A DNA stretch of 32,000 bases from Nitrosopumilus maritimus SCM1 (GTDB lineage: Archaea; Thermoproteota; Nitrososphaeria; Nitrososphaerales; Nitrosopumilaceae). Within the stretch, counting starts at the first letter, position 1, and each line of letters begins with the position of its first letter. The translations under genes and the position numbers were made by a program. The DNA is taken from the NCBI RefSeq assembly GCF_000018465.1, contig NC_010085.1, positions 1,470,001 to 1,502,000 on the forward strand. The letters run 5' to 3'. Below the pieces are notes generated by a model. It worked only from the letters and a program-made list of their open reading frames with translations, was not told where the DNA came from and made no database searches. Positions 19,962 to 29,169 of this stretch are shown piece by piece.

Positions 19962-20138
19962 TTAGAGTTGGTTTCCAGCTAAAAACCAGTTTTCTTTTGG
20001 ATTATCTTCAAAAACAACAATAACATGATTTTCTTTTGTTTTTAGAATTTCAACTGCTGATTTTGTGATTGCTTTTGCGTATTCGTCTTTTTGTTCCTGT
20101 GTTCTTCCAGGATACATTGATACTGTAATCAATGGCAT
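19962..20138 (-). CDS. 4-oxalocrotonate tautomerase family protein, 58 aa (not in ORF track)
   Basis: Hand translation from ATG 20136-20138 to TAA 19962-19964: MPLITVSMYPGRTQEQKDEYAKAITKSAVEILKTKENHVIVVFEDNPKENWFLAGNQL. Pro directly after Met, then x-I-x-V...GRT-x-EQK, is the 4-OT signature. Confidence 0.75.
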   Translation of the reverse strand: MPLITVSMYPGRTQEQKDEYAKAITKSAVEILKTKENHVIVVFEDNPKENWFLAGNQL

Positions 20139-20171
20139 GAAAACTCAAACTAGAATCAAGAATTTATGCTT

Positions 20172-20930
20172 TCAATAATCTGGTCTGTATCCGTATCGTG
20201 TACCATAAGTGTATTCAGAACTGTGTGTTTTTTTGTAGAGATAACCAGTTGCAAATCCTATTGCAAATCCTCCAATGTGTGCCATGTATGCAACACCACC
20301 ACCTGCAACACCAAAGCCACCTATGAAAAATGGTAAGAGATTTTGGAAGACCAACCAAAATGGCAAGAACCATCGTGCTTGAATATGCATCATTCTCCAA
20401 AAGAAACCCAACATAAGAAAAGTGGTAATTCTAACTCTAGGGAACATTGCCAAGTATGCGCCAAGTACTCCAGAAATTGCTCCTGATGCGCCAACTGCAG
20501 GAATAGAACTTGTAGGATCAATTACAATGTGGGCAAAACCCGCACCAACTCCCCATGCAAGATAAATTAAAAGAAATTTTGCTTTGCCAAATTTTAGTTC
20601 AATATTATCACCAAAGATCCACAAAAATAACATGTTACCACCCAAATGCATCAAACCTCCGTGCATAAACATAGAACTAAACAATGAAAAGTACGGAGTA
20701 TCAGGACAAGAAATTCCTGGTTGAATCATTGATGAGAAACCAGTAATACAACTAGGAACTGCTCCCCATTCAAAAAACATGAATGCAGCACTTTGATTAG
20801 AAAATTCCCAAAATTGACCAGTAACAGCTACTTCGTAGAAAAATATTACAACATTGAGTATGATTAATCCAATTGTAATTTTTGGTTTGAATCCTGGAGG
20901 ATGTGGGTTTTCATCTCTTAATGGTAACAT
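20172..20930 (-). CDS. Rhomboid-family intramembrane serine protease
   Basis: Polytopic. HGGLMHLGGNMLFLWIFG (the H-x4-H-x3-N region) and the catalytic GASGAISGVLGA, followed by AHIGGF, are rhomboid hallmarks. Confidence 0.9.
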   Translation of the reverse strand: MLPLRDENPHPPGFKPKITIGLIILNVVIFFYEVAVTGQFWEFSNQSAAFMFFEWGAVPSCITGFSSMIQPGISCPDTPYFSLFSSMFMHGGLMHLGGNMLFLWIFGDNIELKFGKAKFLLIYLAWGVGAGFAHIVIDPTSSIPAVGASGAISGVLGAYLAMFPRVRITTFLMLGFFWRMMHIQARWFLPFWLVFQNLLPFFIGGFGVAGGGVAYMAHIGGFAIGFATGYLYKKTHSSEYTYGTRYGYRPDY

Positions 20931-20970
20931 TAGTTGTTTAGTTTCAATGAAATTTGTATAATAAGATTTT

Positions 20971-22524
20971 TCAATTTTGAATTTGTATTATTCCCTCTTT
21001 GATCAGAAATTGAATTCCTTGTACAAAGGCATCATCATCAATTGCACCTTCTGCCCACCACCCTGCATTGTTTTTAATCCATGCTGGAATTTCATTAGAA
21101 CCAGAATTTTCACCTGAAGATGTAGCAGGTATTAGTAGAACATTTTCTTTGATTAAAAATTGAATTCCTTGTACAAAGGCATCATCATCAATTGCACCTT
21201 CTGCCCACCAACCTGCATTGTTTTTAATCCATGCTGGAACAGTTTCAATTTCAGGCTCACTAGGATGAATTACTAGAATGAAATTACCTTTGGACAAAGA
21301 ATTTCCATCAATATTTGATAATACAAAATTTGCAGTTCCTACTTGATTTTCATTAAATTGTATTTTGTGTGAATTTGGCAATTCAGAATTTACATTTCCT
21401 ACCAAATGTTTTGAAAATATTTCAGAATTATTTTGAACTATTGATAAATCATATTCTACTATTTTCTTTGTTTTATCTGAAAAGATCTCTTCTAAACTAA
21501 GAAAGAATGTAACTTCTTTTCCAGATTTGATAACTTCAGGTTCCCATGACAAGAAAACTTTGTATCTTAAATCAGGAGTTGCGAATTCAAGAGGAAATTT
21601 CACCTCATCACTTGGTTGCAGTTCAAAAATTATCATATCATCAGAGTATTTTGAAGCATCATTACGAATTTGTTTTAGTAATTCTTGATTTAGAACAATG
21701 TGAATGGTTCTATCTTCAAATGAATAATCATCAATATTTACAGTATCATCAGGTAATGGAATGTCATTAACAATTGCTTGATATGTTGTAAAAAGAAAAT
21801 CTCCAAATGTGTTTGGAACTCTAAGCTCTTGATGAACCACACTTAGTTGTTCTAAATCTTGATTCCAATCAAAAGGCATAGAAATTGTTACTTTATTTGA
21901 ATCAAAATTAAATGAATCAAGTTTATCAAAATATGAAATAACTTGAATCGTTTGTTCATTATTTTGAGAATCTGATACTTGAAATGATTTTATTTCAGCT
22001 AGACTAATTGCTCCTTGTAGTTGTACTTCATCAGATAAAACATTGGAATCAGAATCAATAGATAGTATTTTGACATTATACTCATACAGGCCACCAGACA
22101 TGAAAATAGGACCCCGCATAATTAGAGATGATTCATTTTTTATCCAACCCCCTAGTACAGGCTCAATTTCTCCGTCTATAGTGATATTTTCAGAATTTTC
22201 AGTAATTACTTTGATTGATAGATATCCTAGTTCACCATGAAATATTTCTTTGAAAATTTGTTTGCCATCTTTTTTTAATTCAAATTCAAATGTAACATGT
22301 TCAATTATTGCATCAGTATTTGCATCAAACAATCGAAGTGAAATATATTTTTCAGATTCTTCAGGATCATATATTGAGGGAGAAATTGAAATTGAAAGCG
22401 ATGCATCTTTGTTTTCAATTTTAACTGGAGGCAAAACTTCTCCTCCTAATCCATGACCAAAAGCAAATGACGAACAAAGTGAAGATATTAAAAATGCAAA
22501 TAATATTGCGTTAAGAATTTTCAA
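20971..22524 (-). CDS. Secreted protein, paralogue family member A: signal peptide, beta-rich modules, two C-terminal aromatic 'WW-G-x-I-x-D' modules
   Basis: 517 aa. Signal peptide MKILNAILFAFLISSLCSSFAFG|HG. The C-terminus carries 2x PAWIKNNAGWWAEGAIDDDAFVQGIQFLIKE. The start codon is TTG (22522-22524); there is no nearby ATG. Confidence 0.8.
   Translation of the reverse strand: MKILNAILFAFLISSLCSSFAFGHGLGGEVLPPVKIENKDASLSISISPSIYDPEESEKYISLRLFDANTDAIIEHVTFEFELKKDGKQIFKEIFHGELGYLSIKVITENSENITIDGEIEPVLGGWIKNESSLIMRGPIFMSGGLYEYNVKILSIDSDSNVLSDEVQLQGAISLAEIKSFQVSDSQNNEQTIQVISYFDKLDSFNFDSNKVTISMPFDWNQDLEQLSVVHQELRVPNTFGDFLFTTYQAIVNDIPLPDDTVNIDDYSFEDRTIHIVLNQELLKQIRNDASKYSDDMIIFELQPSDEVKFPLEFATPDLRYKVFLSWEPEVIKSGKEVTFFLSLEEIFSDKTKKIVEYDLSIVQNNSEIFSKHLVGNVNSELPNSHKIQFNENQVGTANFVLSNIDGNSLSKGNFILVIHPSEPEIETVPAWIKNNAGWWAEGAIDDDAFVQGIQFLIKENVLLIPATSSGENSGSNEIPAWIKNNAGWWAEGAIDDDAFVQGIQFLIKEGIIQIQN
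21008..21242. repeat. 235-bp segment identical to 22707-22941 (copy A); contains an internal 83-bp unit twice (21007-21089, 21157-21239)
   Basis: Base-by-base comparison by eye at a constant offset of 1699 nt found no mismatch. The internal units differ at one position (21061 c vs 21211 a). Confidence 0.85.
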
Positions 22525-22567
22525 GATTTTTAAATTAGGAGAATCTGTTATAAAAAAATAATAGATG

Positions 22568-22605
22568 AGAAACTGGCAACCAAGATGACTCCTCCTAGTT
22601 TCTCA
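22568..22605 (-). terminator. Intergenic hairpin (8-bp stem GAGAAACT/AGTTTCTC, 22-nt loop) followed on the minus strand by a T-run; possible terminator or attenuator between paralogues B and A
   Basis: Stem arms at 22568-22575 and 22598-22605. On the minus strand the hairpin is followed by atctattattttttta, which merges into the TATA-like region of the downstream gene. Confidence 0.3.
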
Positions 22606-22675
22606 CCGACTATGGCCTGTAAGATGAGTTAATACAAAATAGATTAAAACATAATTGGTACATTCGTCGTATATA

Positions 22676-24547
22676 CTATACTTGTAAGATTCCATTTGTT
22701 ATCAAGAATTGAATTCCTTGTACAAAGGCATCATCATCAATTGCACCTTCTGCCCACCACCCTGCATTGTTTTTAATCCATGCTGGAATTTCATTAGAAC
22801 CAGAATTTTCACCTGAAGATGTAGCAGGTATTAGTAGAACATTTTCTTTGATTAAAAATTGAATTCCTTGTACAAAGGCATCATCATCAATTGCACCTTC
22901 TGCCCACCAACCTGCATTGTTTTTAATCCATGCTGGAACAGCAGGTTTTGTTTCTCCAACAGTTACTGATCCAATCATCCATGGGTGAAGAGTACAATAG
23001 TAGTCAAAAGTTCCATTTTCTTCAAATTTGAAGGAGAATTTTTCCCCTGCAGCCACAACCCCACTATCAAAGATACCAGAAGACCCTTCATCAGGAGTTC
23101 CAGATGTGACTGTATGAGCTGAACTGTCCTTGTTATCCCATAATACGATTTGATTAGGCTCAATAGTCAAACTAGCAGGAAGGTAACAAGAGTTATCTGT
23201 TTCACATCCGGGTAATGATGTTCCAATACCAATATCTACAAAATGATCACCAATCAATTCTTCTTTTGGTTCAGATACTTTGAATGAAAATTCTCCCGAA
23301 GTATCAAAGTTGTTTACATTTGAAATCCTTACAAGTGCCGCACCAACTTGATCAAAGTTTATTTTGACAGAATCAGTTCCGTCATGTGCTTCCAATCCCT
23401 GTTTTGATTCTATTATCCTACCATTAAGAAAAACATCTAGATCATAGACGTTTTGTTGAATAATTACATTAGAAATTGGATCATGGAATTCTATATGCAT
23501 TGTAACATCATTACCAGGATTAATTTTTCCTTTGGGTGTTAGAGATAAATGAAATTTCCAGTCTTCTTCAGAAGACAATTGAATTACTTTATCACCATTC
23601 TCTAATGAAGCATCACTTTTTTGAACATCTCTTAATTTGCCTGATTGAATGCCAAAGATCATTTTATCATTTAATTCAGGAGGATTTTCATCAATCATTT
23701 TCAATAATTTTTTTGATGAAAGTAAAAAGTGAACTACAATTTCCTCATTACCAGAACGATCAATTGTTCCAAAATAAGAAATATCATTTACAGTCAACAT
23801 TATATCATGATTTTCAAAAATATCTACTGTCTTTGGAATATAATATTCAGCATGAACAAAGGGAATTGATTCGATAAAGTCTTCATTCCAATCAAATAGC
23901 ATTTGTGCAGTAAGTTTTTTGTCTCTTTGATCATAGTGAAAGTTATCTATTTTATCAAAATATGTTGCAAACATCAAATCATGTGTTACATCATCAATGT
24001 CAATAGAAAATGGGATAAATTCTCCCATAGTAAACATAATTTGAAATGGTGTTTCAGTTTCAGATACGGGCTCATTTTCAATTGATAATAAGGTCATTTG
24101 AACATCAATTAGTCCCCCTTCCAAAAATAATGGAGCCTCAATAGTCAAAGGAGAATCATTTGAGGCTAGCCAGGCATCATTTTCTGCAGTTTCACCTGAA
24201 AAATTCACGTTAGAGCTAGGTATGATTAATGTTCGAAGTTTTTCATCAGGAGAATATGCATCAAATTCTACAATCAGATTTCCTTGTCCATCAAAGATCT
24301 CAACTTTATGTTCAACACCTAAAACTACTTGTCCAGTATCATCATTAATTGTTGTAATATCAAAAGTAACATGTTCTTCGTTTCCTTCTAAAATTGAAGG
24401 ACTTGTTTCTAATTGTACTTTGAAATAATTTTGGTTGATAAAAATAATATCACTTTCCTCACTACCAGAACCTCCACCATATGCGATTTGTGTTGATCCA
24501 AAAATCAAAAGTAGATAGAGAGCTCCAAGAAATAACTTATGATTCAT
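22676..24547 (-). CDS. Secreted protein, paralogue B: signal peptide, beta-rich modules, type-1 copper (cupredoxin/plastocyanin-like) domain, two C-terminal aromatic modules
   Basis: Signal peptide MNHKLFLGALYLLLIFGSTQIAYG (ATG at 24545-24547; the track start 24556 is TTG). Cupredoxin ligand pattern: SSAHTVTSG ... FDYYCTLHPWMIGSVTV (His, Cys, His, Met). The C-terminal 2x PAWIKNNAGWWAEGAIDDDAFVQGIQFLI is identical to paralogue A. Confidence 0.85.
   Translation of the reverse strand: MNHKLFLGALYLLLIFGSTQIAYGGGSGSEESDIIFINQNYFKVQLETSPSILEGNEEHVTFDITTINDDTGQVVLGVEHKVEIFDGQGNLIVEFDAYSPDEKLRTLIIPSSNVNFSGETAENDAWLASNDSPLTIEAPLFLEGGLIDVQMTLLSIENEPVSETETPFQIMFTMGEFIPFSIDIDDVTHDLMFATYFDKIDNFHYDQRDKKLTAQMLFDWNEDFIESIPFVHAEYYIPKTVDIFENHDIMLTVNDISYFGTIDRSGNEEIVVHFLLSSKKLLKMIDENPPELNDKMIFGIQSGKLRDVQKSDASLENGDKVIQLSSEEDWKFHLSLTPKGKINPGNDVTMHIEFHDPISNVIIQQNVYDLDVFLNGRIIESKQGLEAHDGTDSVKINFDQVGAALVRISNVNNFDTSGEFSFKVSEPKEELIGDHFVDIGIGTSLPGCETDNSCYLPASLTIEPNQIVLWDNKDSSAHTVTSGTPDEGSSGIFDSGVVAAGEKFSFKFEENGTFDYYCTLHPWMIGSVTVGETKPAVPAWIKNNAGWWAEGAIDDDAFVQGIQFLIKENVLLIPATSSGENSGSNEIPAWIKNNAGWWAEGAIDDDAFVQGIQFLITNGILQV
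22707..22941. repeat. 235-bp segment identical to 21008-21242 (copy B); internal 83-bp units at 22707-22788 and 22856-22938
   Basis: Same comparison as for copy A. The flanks diverge immediately outside the block. Confidence 0.85.
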
Positions 24548-24590
24548 GTCAATCAAAATGTTGTAAATTATTTTAAGTTAACAAAAATTC

Positions 24591-26402
24591 TCAGACTTTG
24601 ATTAATCCAGATGCCATCAAGAATTTGATTCCATTTGCAAATTCTACATCAGTAAGATGACCTTCAGACCACCAACCTGCATTATTTCTTACCCACATTG
24701 GAATTGATGTTATGTTTACATCTTCATCAACAATTTCTTCTGCAGCAGATACACTAATGATATTTTCTTGAACTAGATACTCAATACCTTTTGCAAAGTC
24801 TGGATCATTGATTTGTCCATCAGACCACCACATTGCATTCTTCTTTACCCAATCCGGAATTGCAATGTCAGTTGAAACAGAAGTTATTGTAGGTTTTGAC
24901 ATATCAATGTCACTTGAAACCGGAGTTACTGTAGGTCTAGGTGTTTCAACAAATATCTCTGAATCATCTGAAACCATATGAACGCCAGTATCAAGAACTA
25001 ATGCTCTTGCAACTATTTCCATACTATCAGCAGTAGTGTATGGTCGTGGTAATGTAATGTCTTCATATTCAATGTAAATTGTATCACCATTTGTAACTCT
25101 CAATCTATTTTGCTCTTGAGAAGAATCTCCAGTGGTCATAAAGAACTCGCCTGGAAGATAATTGATATAGTGAGGATGTTCATATCCTACAAAGTAATTA
25201 GGAGTACTTCCAACTTCAAAGGAACCATGTCTAGGTACAACTTCTTCTAAAATTGCTTCAGGTGCAACTTGGAATGAGAAATTTACTTCTTGACCAGGTT
25301 GATCAAAGATGTTAGAAACTACAATTTTAGCAGAGCCTCTCTCATCAAAGCGAATTGGTTCTACACCTTGTCCGTCTACCCAATATTGATCATTTCTTGA
25401 TTCAATTAATTCACCGTTAAGATAGATATCCATATCATAAGACAATCCCATCTCGTGGATGTCAGTTAAGCCATCATGAACCATTAAGTTAAAGTCATAA
25501 TCTTGATCAACACCAATTACACCACCTGGTTCAGTCCAGAGATATGTTTTCCATTCTCCATCAGGAGTGTATTTTGTTAATGAGCTTGCAGCTGGTTCAC
25601 TCAAGTGACGATCATATACTGCATTCTGAATTTTTGCATGATCCATATCTTTTACAAATTGAACACCAACAAATATTCCTGCTTTATCTGAATCTGAATA
25701 TACTTTAACATAATTTGTGAAAAATTCTCGGTGGTGCTTCCACAAGTCGGTATCACGTATGAAAAATGTGACTTTTTCATTTACATCATAGGTATCTTTG
25801 TGGAATTCAGCTTGTCCCATTTGCCAAGTATAATATGCAGTTTTGTAAACATGTTGATCTTCATTATATTCCCAGTCAACTGTTAATCTACCATCTTGTG
25901 TAGATGTTGCAATCATTACAGCCCTATCATGTGCTGAAATATTCATTCCATCTGGATCCATAGTCATTCCAGGTGTTTTAACAGTAGTAAGAAATGTATC
26001 ATGAACAGTATAACGCATTGCACCTGTCAATTTTACAACTCCCATGAATATGCCAGTATCAGGGCCAGTTTCTGTAAACTCAACGCCATTTACACGGTTG
26101 GCATCAGTGTAGACATCAATTGGATTTGATGTGGTACCAATTTGTTCAATTTTATCATCATCCTCGTTCCATCCTGGAGCATAAATCAAGACGTTTACTC
26201 TATCAGTCCAGCCAATTCCTTCATATCTTTCATTACAATCTTGTAGTTTGAAAGTTTCATTTGCACAGAATTTCATTATAATTCCTGCTGATTTTTGTAC
26301 ATTTGTAAAACCAGTATCAGCTAAGACTGGGGATATTGTAATTGTAGATGTTAAAATTACCATAAATGCGAAAATTGCAATTGTTCCCATACTTTTTGCC
26401 AT
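24591..26402 (-). CDS. Secreted protein, paralogue C: signal peptide, large beta-rich region, two diverged C-terminal aromatic modules
   Basis: Likely start MAKSMGTIAIFAFMVILTSTITISPVLA|D (ATG 26400-26402; the track start 26462 adds 20 aa before the signal peptide). C-terminal modules are IPDWVKKNAMWWSDGQINDPDFAKGIEYLV and IPMWVRNNAGWWSEGHLTDVEFANGIKFLM. The segment YDMDIYLNGELIES...AKIVVSNI...FSFQV is related to segments in paralogues A and B. Confidence 0.8.
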   Translation of the reverse strand: MAKSMGTIAIFAFMVILTSTITISPVLADTGFTNVQKSAGIIMKFCANETFKLQDCNERYEGIGWTDRVNVLIYAPGWNEDDDKIEQIGTTSNPIDVYTDANRVNGVEFTETGPDTGIFMGVVKLTGAMRYTVHDTFLTTVKTPGMTMDPDGMNISAHDRAVMIATSTQDGRLTVDWEYNEDQHVYKTAYYTWQMGQAEFHKDTYDVNEKVTFFIRDTDLWKHHREFFTNYVKVYSDSDKAGIFVGVQFVKDMDHAKIQNAVYDRHLSEPAASSLTKYTPDGEWKTYLWTEPGGVIGVDQDYDFNLMVHDGLTDIHEMGLSYDMDIYLNGELIESRNDQYWVDGQGVEPIRFDERGSAKIVVSNIFDQPGQEVNFSFQVAPEAILEEVVPRHGSFEVGSTPNYFVGYEHPHYINYLPGEFFMTTGDSSQEQNRLRVTNGDTIYIEYEDITLPRPYTTADSMEIVARALVLDTGVHMVSDDSEIFVETPRPTVTPVSSDIDMSKPTITSVSTDIAIPDWVKKNAMWWSDGQINDPDFAKGIEYLVQENIISVSAAEEIVDEDVNITSIPMWVRNNAGWWSEGHLTDVEFANGIKFLMASGLIKV

Positions 26403-26470
26403 ATGAAATCTAAAACATTGTTTTGAATATAATGGGAATGGTTCATTCGATAAATGTACCATTAGATCTA

Positions 26471-27802
26471 TTATTTGACCTCAACGTGACAGGAATGGAA
26501 ATGTTCACTCCATTTTGAATGACCTACAAATCTTTTTGACTCAAATTCTTGCAGGTCAGTAAATGTAGTACTAGTTTTACCAACTGTGTTTCCCTTGGCA
26601 TCCAAAAAAGATATTGAGAGTTCGACTTGAGGTCGCTTTAGATGATCATTATGATATTGACCAGAAATTGTTACTAGTCCAAAATCATCACGTATACATG
26701 AAAAATTTTCTACACCTTGAATTGCAGATTTTTCTGGTTCAATAGATTTCGGTACAGTTTGAATTGGATTAGAAGAGTCTTGGGAAATATTTTCTTGAAT
26801 ATCTTTTTGTAAAATATGATGTAATTGAGAACTCATGTGATCATTATTGAAATACGCAATTTTTTTTAGAATTTCACTCATAAATCTAGTTGTAGGCTCG
26901 GTTTCATCTAAGATTAGATCAGAGACATCATAATTGTAGTGTTCATTATGTTGATCAAATATGATAACATGTATTATGAAATTTTCATAAATGCATGATG
27001 TTAATCCACCCTTTGAAGTATAGTTAAACAAACATTCAGAATTTTCATTTGGGTTTCCACTAAGATATGCAGATTCGAATACTTTGTCTTTATTTTCAAA
27101 AGAATTCCAATAGTCATCTAAATCATTTTTGTTGTTAAATTCAATTATTTGCATTGTTAATGTAGGTACTTTGAATTTGTAAAAAATTGGTTCGTATACT
27201 CTAGTAATGTCATTGAAAATAATTTTGACAGAATCTACAACACCTTCTTTTTCTTCAAATTCATATTCAGTTGAAAATGTTCTCCACTTTGTCTCTTTTG
27301 TAATATTCAAAATTTCTTTATCATTTAACAAATATTTTTCAAGACTTGATTGGAATGTTTCATCATTTGAAAAGATACTTTGCTCGGGGTTGTATTCTAG
27401 ATACCCAACTTCTCTCAAGTAATGAATTGTTCTAAGAAATTGTAAATCACTTATTTTTCCATCAATCCACCATTCTGCTCTATCTTTAACCCAATATGGA
27501 ATTAATTCTAAAGTCTTTTCTTCGTATAATTCGGGAATATCTTGAATTACAGTTTTTGCAGTATTGATTAGAATTTCTTGTGATTTTATTTCATCAGGTA
27601 TGATATTTTTATCAAGAATGTTTTGAATTAGTGCTAAAAATTCAGAATCAGACATTTGCCCATCTATCCAGATAGAAGTAGTCTGTCTTACCCAATCAGG
27701 GAATATGCTAGGCTCAGAATCATCTCCAAAAACAGGATTTTGGAGTGAAATTACAAGTAAGAGGACAGTGATTGCAAATAATGAACTGATTTTTAGATTC
27801 AT
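26471..27802 (-). CDS. Secreted protein, paralogue D: signal peptide followed by two N-terminal aromatic modules, then an unrelated C-terminal region
   Basis: ATG at 27800-27802 (MNLKISSLFAITVLLLVISLQNPVFG) shares one nt with the upstream TGA (27802-27804). Modules: FPDWVRQTTSIWIDGQMSDSEFLALIQNIL and IPYWVKDRAEWWIDGKISDLQFLRTIHYL. Confidence 0.8.
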   Translation of the reverse strand: MNLKISSLFAITVLLLVISLQNPVFGDDSEPSIFPDWVRQTTSIWIDGQMSDSEFLALIQNILDKNIIPDEIKSQEILINTAKTVIQDIPELYEEKTLELIPYWVKDRAEWWIDGKISDLQFLRTIHYLREVGYLEYNPEQSIFSNDETFQSSLEKYLLNDKEILNITKETKWRTFSTEYEFEEKEGVVDSVKIIFNDITRVYEPIFYKFKVPTLTMQIIEFNNKNDLDDYWNSFENKDKVFESAYLSGNPNENSECLFNYTSKGGLTSCIYENFIIHVIIFDQHNEHYNYDVSDLILDETEPTTRFMSEILKKIAYFNNDHMSSQLHHILQKDIQENISQDSSNPIQTVPKSIEPEKSAIQGVENFSCIRDDFGLVTISGQYHNDHLKRPQVELSISFLDAKGNTVGKTSTTFTDLQEFESKRFVGHSKWSEHFHSCHVEVK

Positions 27803-29169
27803 CAAGTAGAAACCTCCTTTGAGAATTGTGATAGTGCATCTCCAAAGTCAGCATCACTGGAATCATACTTTGCATACTCTACACTTCCACAAAGTAACAG
27901 CCAACCTCTTACCTTGCCAAATGCATCTGATTTTGATTCATCAAGCACACTTAGTAACTCTTGGTTTGTCATTTCTTTGTAAATTTCCATATTTTGTGAA
28001 TAATAGTATCGAATTGCCTGACTGAGTGTTTCAAATGCTTCTTTTCTTTGATTATTATCAAACAAATTCTGAGATTTGTTTATCATTTGTTGAGTTAATT
28101 CTCTAAAGTCAGTTTGAGGCTTTGACACTTGCAATAGTGGTTCTTCATACTTTCTTTCTGATAATTTCTTGCGCAATAGATATCCAAATACTGCTAATGC
28201 AACAAATACTGGAATAATCAAGAGTAGTGAAATATTTTCAAAGCTTTGTGTAGGTGCAGTTACTTGGAACGGATTACTCTGTAATGAATCACGTATGTGT
28301 CTTGTATTTTCGAACTTTGGTTTTTCAAATTTGAAATTATCAAATATGTTTTCTGGTTCACTTGTAGGTGCAGAAACAGCTATACCAGTATCAGGTAATT
28401 TACCAGGTGGAAGCTGTTCACCAGACAATATACCATCAAATAGTTGCAGAGTCTGTTCAGAGAATGCATCATTCATTCTTTCTTGAATTTGTTCTTTAGT
28501 TAGTAAGAGATAGTTTGGAGAGTATTCCCTTAGATCAAACTCACCCTCACCACTAAACGTAGCATCTTCCATCATTTGTCTACCAAGTGTGAATTCTTTA
28601 GGAGTAAAGATGTCGTTTGGAATTGCTGCTAAATTATCCATACTGTATCCACGTTCAAGCACAAAAAGCTCCAAGTTTGAGTTTGGATTATAATCAAATG
28701 CCTGACCTTTTATCAAATATCTACTATCTCCAATAGGATCAAGCAAAGCTTCTGCAATTTCGACATAGCCATCAGAAAATCGGTCATAATATTTTATTTT
28801 ATGTTTAAAACTTTCTTGTCTAAGATCTCGTTGTTCAATTAGCATTCCATTTAGAATTTGACCTTCTTCTGAATCAATTGTAATTTTATAATCTCCAATA
28901 GAGTAGTTGTTACCTGTAATGAATTTATCATAAATTGGTTTTACAGATTCTGTATTTTCTACTACCAATTCTTCATAGCTGGAAACTATTTCAGCTTCTT
29001 GCGTTGTAACATGTTCTTTTTCAAGTTGCCCTTCAATTAACCAATCCATTTGAATTTCGGTAGATTCTGCAAATGCAGGATTCACAGCTATGAGAGGTAA
29101 TAACAAAAAGATTCCAATAATTTTTTTGCTAAAAAGTAAAGAGTTATGCGACAATTCTATACCTGCCAT
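27802..29169 (-). CDS. Type I membrane protein: signal peptide, ~290-aa extracytoplasmic domain, one TM helix, ~120-aa cytoplasmic helical tail (DUF4129-like by eye)
   Basis: Signal peptide IIGIFLLLPLIAVNPAFA|E. TM helix ISLLLIIPVFVALAVFGYLL followed by RKK. The tail AIRYYYSQ...MTNQELLSVL...CGSVEYAKYDSS resembles the DUF4129 pattern seen next to MoxR/DUF58 genes. It overlaps the vWA gene by 26 nt. Confidence 0.75.
   Translation of the reverse strand: MAGIELSHNSLLFSKKIIGIFLLLPLIAVNPAFAESTEIQMDWLIEGQLEKEHVTTQEAEIVSSYEELVVENTESVKPIYDKFITGNNYSIGDYKITIDSEEGQILNGMLIEQRDLRQESFKHKIKYYDRFSDGYVEIAEALLDPIGDSRYLIKGQAFDYNPNSNLELFVLERGYSMDNLAAIPNDIFTPKEFTLGRQMMEDATFSGEGEFDLREYSPNYLLLTKEQIQERMNDAFSEQTLQLFDGILSGEQLPPGKLPDTGIAVSAPTSEPENIFDNFKFEKPKFENTRHIRDSLQSNPFQVTAPTQSFENISLLLIIPVFVALAVFGYLLRKKLSERKYEEPLLQVSKPQTDFRELTQQMINKSQNLFDNNQRKEAFETLSQAIRYYYSQNMEIYKEMTNQELLSVLDESKSDAFGKVRGWLLLCGSVEYAKYDSSDADFGDALSQFSKEVST

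Follow-up and report, generated by a model that had tools for sequence, protein, structure and literature searches.

Evidence for recent gene conversion between the C-terminal repeat modules of two neighbouring exoprotein genes in Nitrosopumilus maritimus SCM1, and for fusion and deletion alleles among its relatives

The window examined here is a stretch of 32,000 nucleotides (nt) of the Nitrosopumilus maritimus SCM1 genome (contig NC_010085.1 of assembly GCF_000018465.1, positions 1,470,001 to 1,502,000 of the forward strand). It contains two adjacent minus-strand open reading frames (ORFs), ORF1 and ORF2, which lie upstream of a gene for a rhomboid protease and encode secreted proteins ending in the same type of repeat pair. 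Coordinates are window positions unless they are marked as belonging to the SCM1 genome (C1) or to the contig of a relative; the labels G, L and P denote genomes of relatives, loci or metagenome contigs, and homologues known as proteins, respectively. The features on which the argument depends are as follows.

20971–22524, minus strand: ORF1, a secreted protein of 517 residues, made up of a signal peptide, a beta-rich body and a C-terminal repeat pair (from the ORF listing)
22676–24556, minus strand: ORF2, a 626-residue secreted paralogue in which a cupredoxin domain (residues 455–533) precedes the repeat pair
21008–21242, minus strand: proposed recipient (converted) tract in ORF1, comprising repeat 1, the linker and most of repeat 2
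22707–22941, minus strand: proposed donor tract in ORF2, which retains orthologous similarity to the ORF2 modules of relatives
21152–21239, minus strand: ORF1 repeat unit 1, an 88-nt DNA unit of family D1
21002–21089, minus strand: ORF1 repeat unit 2, family D1, 97% identical to ORF1 unit 1
22851–22938, minus strand: ORF2 repeat unit 1, family D1, 100% identical to ORF1 unit 1
22701–22788, minus strand: ORF2 repeat unit 2, family D1
20974–21007, minus strand: unconverted ORF1-type tail (…KEGIIQIQN), matching the tails of the ORF1 orthologues of G126, G003 and G012
22679–22706, minus strand: ORF2-type tail (…TNGILQV), matching the tails of the ORF2 orthologues of G029, G126, G147 and G003

The bodies of the two proteins share 28% amino-acid identity over ~570 aligned columns and are true but old paralogues. 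The cupredoxin domain of ORF2 (PF00127, E 2.9e-07) is absent from ORF1, which has no match in Pfam or NCBIfam and whose orthologues in relatives are 62–89% identical to it. Homologues of ORF1 (P0003, P0005, P0008 and others) are called ‘peptidase’ by NCBI; no Pfam or NCBIfam peptidase model matches ORF1, and the name looks unsupported.

The two blocks form the 3′ ends of the genes and are offset by 1,699 bp. In an exact-match search all 235 bases agreed between 21008–21242 and 22707–22941, and the match is maximal, with first mismatches at 21007 and 21243; a repeat search stretches the pair to 260 nt at 97% identity (20983–21242 and 22682–22941). Over the 78 codons of the tract ORF1 and ORF2 show zero synonymous differences. 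The repeat search also recovers the 88-nt unit of family D1 four times, with a period of 150 nt. Within ORF1, 21007–21089 and 21157–21239 differ by one mismatch in 83 nt, at 21061, and this single mismatch between repeat 1 and repeat 2 is common to both genes. In gene sense the 5′ border is sharp, and past the 3′ border the diverged tails are ~68% identical for 25 nt. A preliminary description of this DNA had claimed a 235-bp identity inclusive of synonymous sites, an 83-bp internal unit recurring at 150 bp with one mismatch so as to give four near-identical copies, abrupt borders and otherwise distant paralogues. It proved correct throughout on these points: the identity cannot be extended by one base on either side, and precise alignment, in which many mismatches would have spoken against it, gave none in 235 bp.

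Identity of this degree is far beyond what chance or protein-level constraint would give. Pairwise nucleotide identity among the 35 repeat units of the SCM1 genome has a median of only 60% (95th percentile 77%), and therefore protein-level constraint does not hold synonymous sites identical in this repeat family. Elsewhere in the genome, the tandem-pair module most similar to the block lies at 1,506,099 and matches it at 83% over ~263 nt, and a self-comparison of the genome revealed few other dispersed repeats of comparable quality.

Each block codes for two tandem copies of a helical repeat of 37 residues (consensus roughly IPxWIKNNAGWWAEGxIDDxxFVxGIQFLIxxGI), which are joined by a Ser/Thr-rich linker of ~13 residues. 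A census with a hidden Markov model (HMM) placed the 35 units in 20 ORFs of the SCM1 genome (one contig, 1,645,259 bp, 34.2% GC); most occur as a pair at the extreme C-terminus of signal-peptide proteins, and seven such genes lie at 1.49–1.51 Mb. By profile search the module was found in every one of the 80 genomes sampled from the family, covering 17 genera, and in none of the 70 sampled from the remaining families of its class. No Pfam or NCBIfam model covers the repeat, and it has no profile match to SLH (PF00395), dockerin (PF00404) or PEFG-CTERM. No solved structure was matched either, the best hit by sequence in the PDB having an E value of 0.13 and the best by Foldseek one of 2.7. AlphaFold2 models of 15 paralogous pairs show four helices arranged as two helix-loop-helix units, with a predicted local distance difference test (pLDDT) score of 86.5. 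The module may act as an ‘anchor’.

The order ORF2–ORF1–rhomboid gene is also found in two closed genomes of the genus, G126 (ORF1 85% and ORF2 91% identical at the amino-acid level) and G147 (81% and 87%), where the blocks are spaced by 1,698 bp and 1,694 bp, respectively. The same two-gene order occurs in G003, with 2 kb inserted between the genes, in the metagenome contig L056 and in four further metagenome loci. For each genome the ORF1 module was compared with the ORF2 module, the number of differences per site and the longest identical run being recorded.

SCM1: 3 differences in 240 sites, longest run 233 (in the alignment)
L056: ~79% identity, longest run 75 nt, in repeat 2 only
G126: 59 differences in 237 sites, longest run 21
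G147: 66 differences in 237 sites, longest run 30
G003: 81 differences in 237 sites, longest run 14
L057, L059, L060 and L062: 57–59% identity, longest run 7–8

Seven other two-gene loci (those of G126, G147 and G003 and four metagenome loci) are thus not homogenised, and the eighth, L056, is so in part. Synonymous divergence (dS) between the two modules is 0.095 over 87 codons in SCM1, all of it from the unconverted tails, compared with 0.83 in L056, 1.25 in G126, 1.48 in G147 and 2.9 in G003. Homogenisation is therefore specific to the SCM1 lineage, and the smaller tract in L056 is independent of it. In the module tree the ORF1 and ORF2 modules of SCM1 pair with each other (97/98) and are nested in the ORF2 clade (95/95), while four other ORF1 modules form a clade of their own (95/90). 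The bodies and tails group by orthology and the module by genome. An approximately unbiased (AU) test rejects an ORF2-only clade that excludes the ORF1 module of SCM1 (p = 0.003). Scanning identity along the genes in a sliding window failed to delimit the tract, as conservation of the module is high in any case.

The direction of transfer can be read from the same comparisons. The ORF1 module of SCM1 is 79% identical to the ORF1 module of G126, while the ORF1 bodies are 87% identical; to the ORF2 module of G126 it is 92% identical. It shows the ORF2 state at 24 of 26 diagnostic sites, defined as those which separate the ORF1 orthologues from the ORF2 orthologues of G030 and G029. ORF1 is accordingly a mosaic, in which the linker is ORF2-type and the last nine residues, KEGIIQIQN, and the 3′ flank are ORF1-type; the tail of ORF2, TNGILQV, is ORF2-type. 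The ORF2 module of SCM1 is 93%, 89% and 88% identical to the ORF2 modules of G126, G030 and G029, with values of 92%, 87% and 85% for the bodies. The module of ORF2 is thus as close to that of G126 as the bodies are, so the donor is unchanged and the transfer was non-reciprocal. The ORF1 module of SCM1 is nearer to the ORF2 module of G126 than to the ORF1 module of that genome, from which it follows that the transfer ran from ORF2 into ORF1 and postdates the split from G126. The 235 bp hold roughly 58 synonymous sites with zero differences, and dS between SCM1 and G126 is 0.3–0.44, which would place the event, as a rough estimate, in approximately the most recent sixth of the period since the two lineages parted. 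The mismatch between repeat 1 and repeat 2 that the two genes share fits one transfer of the whole block.

The borders of the tract coincide with changes in relatedness. Upstream of repeat 1 the sequences are unrelated: a beta-rich domain finishes there in ORF1, and the cupredoxin domain in ORF2. Past the FLI motif of repeat 2, the tails agree at 68% over 25 nt, after which the flanks are unrelated. The tract fills the whole region able to form heteroduplex, and the sharp borders are therefore limits of homology that need no selective explanation.

Taken together, gene conversion from ORF2 to ORF1 in the SCM1 lineage is strongly supported. Recent conversion or concerted evolution of the C-terminal module, with bodies that had diverged, was already suspected from the SCM1 sequence, and comparison with relatives bears it out: these hold unconverted two-gene loci, and the ORF1 module of SCM1 is ORF2-type. 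On this best-supported account, non-reciprocal homologous recombination in the SCM1 lineage, after its split from the closest sequenced two-gene relative, overwrote the matching position in ORF1, 1,699 bp downstream on the same strand, with ~235 bp of the C-terminal module of ORF2, which comprise repeat 1, the linker and the greater part of repeat 2. The likely route is strand invasion or double-strand-break repair with the paralogous module as template, which may have started at patches of 20–30 identical bases in modules that were ~75–79% identical beforehand. Few residues distinguish the two types of module, so the change was probably near-neutral. The conversion is one instance of a continuing concerted evolution in the repeat family.

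Several observations weigh against this account. Further AU tests on the 240-column module alignment left alternative placements standing (p = 0.06–0.29), in tests that mostly had low power on so short an alignment and whose constraints are trivially satisfiable in an unrooted tree; more weight is therefore given here to the plain counts of differences. The identity is read from the assembly, in which a consensus or polishing artefact is conceivable. Lastly, P0001, the closest orthologue of ORF1 (89% amino-acid identity; protein sequence only), also has an ORF2-type module, so part of the history could predate the SCM1 lineage, or the allele could have been imported.

Import is the strongest of the alternatives, albeit an unlikely one. 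It holds that an ORF1 allele which already carried an ORF2-type module arrived from a close strain by homologous recombination across conserved flanks. P0001 is ORF2-type in repeat 1, linker and repeat 2, P0002 (85%) is ORF2-type in linker and repeat 2, and the locus is a flexible region with many configurations. However, the tract is 100% identical to the resident ORF2, which is itself ~7% away from the nearest sequenced ORF2 module, and the module of P0001 differs from that of SCM1 ORF1 at several residues and in the tail. A near-clonal donor would be needed, and conversion would still be the originating event.

An artefact of assembly or consensus is very improbable; in that case either modules that really differ would have been rendered identical, or a mis-assembled repeat would have given rise to the duplication itself. 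Repeats are a classic source of collapse, but the SCM1 genome is a single closed contig free of N, the block measures no more than 235 bp and has unique flanks and intact reading frames, and each tail and 3′ flank matches its own orthologue. Moreover, collapse would remove the interval and not homogenise it. Assembly error is also unlikely because the two closed relatives G126 and G147 share the two-gene layout with the spacing of 1,698 and 1,694 bp.

Two further explanations can be set aside with near certainty. A constraint at the level of DNA or RNA (a regulatory RNA, a binding site or a mobile element), which would keep 235 bp identical without recombination, has nothing in its favour besides the identity itself; no Rfam match was found at E <= 0.1 in 20000–25000, the block is in-frame coding sequence for a protein domain present in all 80 sampled genomes of the family, and G126, G147, G003 and the four metagenome loci differ at 25–43% of module sites. 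A recent whole-gene duplication followed by very fast divergence outside the module would suit two adjacent paralogues on the same strand, but the bodies are only 28% identical and each has its own orthologues, at 64–91%, in genomes with both genes; the duplication is therefore older than the genus, and a recent one is refuted. A mobile element was also rejected as such, there being no inverted repeats or transposase and the block being an in-frame domain. Programmed antigenic variation of the kind known from pilE/pilS, vlsE cassettes or diversity-generating retroelements does not describe the locus: both genes are complete ORFs with signal peptides, it is the conserved and not the variable part that is homogenised, and the ORF listing contains no reverse transcriptase or cassette array.

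Gene conversion between ORF2 and ORF1 has a counterpart within single genes. The two repeats of a gene are, in the majority of orthologues, closer to each other than to any unit of the other genes compared. The two repeats of ORF1 are 100% identical over 112 nt in G126, 99% identical in G012, 98% in G147 and 96% in G003, and those of ORF2 are 95% identical in both G015 and G029, whereas the best unit from any other gene is 83–92% identical in the set of 11 genes. Lineage-specific substitutions, for example DDE, DDQ and KSN…DDET, are common to both repeats, and the repeat 1 or repeat 2 label changes 8 times on the unit tree, equal to the number for shuffled labels. Homogenisation of the two repeats within a gene thus recurs from one lineage to the next. 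The ORF2 modules of G051 and four metagenome loci are far more divergent, at 57–62% to the other ORF1 and ORF2 modules compared, and in G051 repeat 1 and repeat 2 of ORF2 are only 59% identical. This suggests that the ORF1-like ORF2 module in the clade of SCM1 may itself be the product of an older conversion.

A second exoprotein family of SCM1, outside the window at C1:306341–308381, carries the same signature of end homogenisation. Three tandem minus-strand paralogues (306367–307275, 307314–308231 and 308235–309122), with amino-acid identities of 33–46%, share a block of 131–173 bp at 98.6–100%, which comprises PEFG-CTERM-like ends (…VVPEFGTIAAMILAVAIISIIAVSAKSRLSIMPRY) and the 3′ flank. The genome also has two larger dispersed duplications, one of 5 kb (C1:1096305–1101510 and 1411703–1416986, 93–94% identical) and one of 1.4 kb (1154553–1155971 and 1525099–1526518, 90%).

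Relatives of SCM1 hold fusion and deletion alleles at the same locus. Their relationships were taken from a tree of a single marker, nrdJ (2.6 kb), in which G030 is the sister of SCM1 (97/98), followed by G029 and G057 (100/100) and then by G051 and G047; G003, G012, G037, G015 and G050 fall in another clade. The body of ORF1 was not found in G030, G029, G047, G037, G057 or G015 (best match in each assembly <=35%), and in G051 an ORF1-like gene (62%) lies on another contig. In G030, G047 and G037 the ORF2 orthologue runs into an ORF1-type tail, followed by a conserved 40-nt spacer before the rhomboid gene. The crossover lies inside repeat 2 in G030, between repeat 1 and the linker in G047, and in the last codons in G037. 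Such fusion alleles are the product expected of recombination between two direct-repeat modules. G030 and G037 are fragmented metagenome-assembled genomes (MAGs) in which repeat collapse is possible, and G047 is closed. The preliminary description had foreseen that the 1.7-kb interval might undergo deletion or fusion through its repeats, and the joining of ORF2 body to ORF1 tail in these three genomes bears that prediction out.

G029 presents a different case. Its ORF2 retains its own tail and its 3′ spacer with a hairpin and T-run, and ORF1 has been deleted from ~25 nt upstream of the start to ~10–18 nt before the stop, such that a short remnant stays. This loss is of another kind, an illegitimate deletion. 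The gene at genome position 1504304 has an orthologue in G021 and G036 (73% amino-acid identity) that ends in a tail resembling that of ORF1 (KEGILQISS and KEGIMQISN) and is followed by the same 40-nt spacer, an arrangement which fits a module-to-module event of about 13 kb. Flanks of both the ORF2 type and the ORF1 type occur in both major clades; the two-gene state is therefore likely to be ancestral and the losses independent, with lateral spread of the fusion and deletion alleles as a possible alternative. In G050 (L029, G050:C58, 2525–4352), a truncated orthologue of ORF6, the gene on the vWA side, is found within ~450 nt past the rhomboid gene and covers residues 111–315 only, implying that ORF1–ORF5 went together with the 5′ part of ORF6 in a large deletion. 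The locus is a recombination hot spot.

The SCM1 genome has two more paralogues of the ORF1 body, at C1:991335–992582 and C1:1535442–1536701 (51% identity), and the ORF1-body subfamily is not represented in its closest relatives, G030, G029 and G057 (best match <=35%). This patchy distribution suggests gain or loss of the whole subfamily.

The remaining features of the locus, and the genes on either side of the pair, are as follows.

22525–22675, minus strand: intergenic spacer between ORF2 and ORF1, with a hairpin and T-run at ~22552–22608
20931–20970, minus strand: 40-nt spacer from the ORF1 stop to the rhomboid start, which holds a conserved TTATTATAC element
20172–20930, minus strand: rhomboid protease gene (PF01694, E 3e-32), the fixed downstream anchor of a variable array
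24591–26462, minus strand: ORF3, the next module-bearing paralogue, not homogenised, with repeat units 66–70% identical to the block
26471–27805, minus strand: ORF4, a non-homogenised paralogue whose repeat pair is N-terminal (from the HMM census)

The hairpin of the intergenic spacer (22552–22608, minus strand) has a stem of GAGAAACT/AGTTTCTC plus extensions and is followed by the T-run; its predicted fold has an energy of -19.5 kcal/mol (z = -3.1). It is kept in G029 despite the loss of ORF1 there and, judged from the sequence, looks like the terminator of ORF2. The 40-nt spacer with TTATTATAC is conserved in 12 of 12 aligned sequences, regardless of the upstream gene. At least six locus configurations exist upstream of the rhomboid gene (L021–L032, L055, L068–L087), and in 26 of 32 genus genomes surveyed its nearest upstream ORF of at least 150 residues carries the module, whichever paralogue it is. 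It is conceivable that the module proteins are substrates of the rhomboid protease. The insert of G003 (L024, G003:C14, 10895–12802) places a winged-helix-like regulator and two small secreted proteins between ORF2 and ORF1, and a homologue of this regulator is present in the array of G012.

Diversifying selection had been put forward as the setting in which such mosaics arise; gene-wide, this is unsupported. The ratio of nonsynonymous to synonymous substitution (dN/dS), measured between SCM1 and G126 or G147, is 0.19–0.21 for the body of ORF1 and 0.13–0.14 for that of ORF2, compared with 0.03–0.10 for ORF3, the rhomboid gene and a neighbour of the nitrilase family. ORF1 and ORF2 evolve faster than their neighbours yet under purifying selection, which is more relaxed than in those neighbours.

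Recombination of this kind is ordinary and well known in bacteria. In Helicobacter pylori, paralogous genes for outer-membrane adhesins (babA/babB, sabA/sabB and hopM/hopN) undergo gene conversion and chimera formation. The SCM1 locus resembles these in its divergent functional middles and homogenised ends, including the C-terminal part for envelope attachment, in the non-reciprocal nature of the transfer, and in the chimeric or deleted alleles found among strains. It differs in its host, an archaeon that has an S-layer and lacks an outer membrane, and in its homogenised part, a pair of soluble helical repeats and not a beta-barrel; moreover, the genes are tandem neighbours, and neither phase variation nor host immune pressure is implied. 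Bacterial cell-surface binding repeats, such as choline-binding repeats, SLH triplets and the repeats of staphylococcal and streptococcal surface proteins, also evolve in concert. There too, repeats within a gene are closer to each other than to the equivalent repeats in orthologues, and repeats mediate deletions; the repeat described here, however, has only two copies per gene and matched no Pfam or NCBIfam family or solved structure.

Among archaea, gene conversion is known from the equalisation of genome copies in polyploid haloarchaea and methanogens and from short-tract conversion in Sulfolobus. As in those cases, homologous-recombination machinery acts on near-identical archaeal DNA, but they concern allelic copies and experimental markers, whereas the event in SCM1 is ectopic and involves diverged paralogues in an ammonia oxidiser with a small genome. 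A full-text search of the literature covered returned no report of gene conversion for Nitrosopumilus, and the papers it retrieved mentioned conversion only for archaeal ploidy. In marine prokaryotes, replacement flexible genomic islands have been described for cell-surface genes (PMC3990693, PMC4010524). The present locus is similarly a variable array of surface genes between conserved flanks, reshaped by homologous recombination; unlike in those islands, the substrate is internal, namely the shared C-terminal module of the cargo genes, and the breakpoints can be mapped inside the module.

Two practical warnings follow for work on these proteins: trees of the module do not follow gene history, and short-read MAGs may collapse or mis-join module arrays. 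In the ocean few cells are as abundant as ammonia-oxidising archaea, whose genomes are small and streamlined, and their repertoire of cell-surface genes is thought to be important for interactions with viruses and grazers. To our knowledge, they are still without a genetic system. The donor, direction and timing of the conversion are readable here from relatives, and a datable, directional conversion, together with mapped fusion and deletion alleles in sister species, is direct genomic evidence of active ectopic homologous recombination; together they show recombination shaping the cell-surface gene repertoire. A wider role can be suggested only tentatively, namely that the C-terminal repeat module is a portable recombination handle for the whole exoprotein repertoire, with ~20 genes per genome, many in same-strand arrays. 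In support of this, three bodies (ORF1-type, ORF2-type and that of the 1504304 orthologue) are joined in different species to the same rhomboid-proximal tail and 40-nt flank, and the PEFG-CTERM family at 306–309 kb of the genome is also end-homogenised. If this is true, module-to-module events would keep converting, fusing and deleting protein bodies at the fixed ends for envelope attachment, perhaps exchanging them as well, and would be a source of much of the surface-protein diversity among Nitrosopumilaceae.

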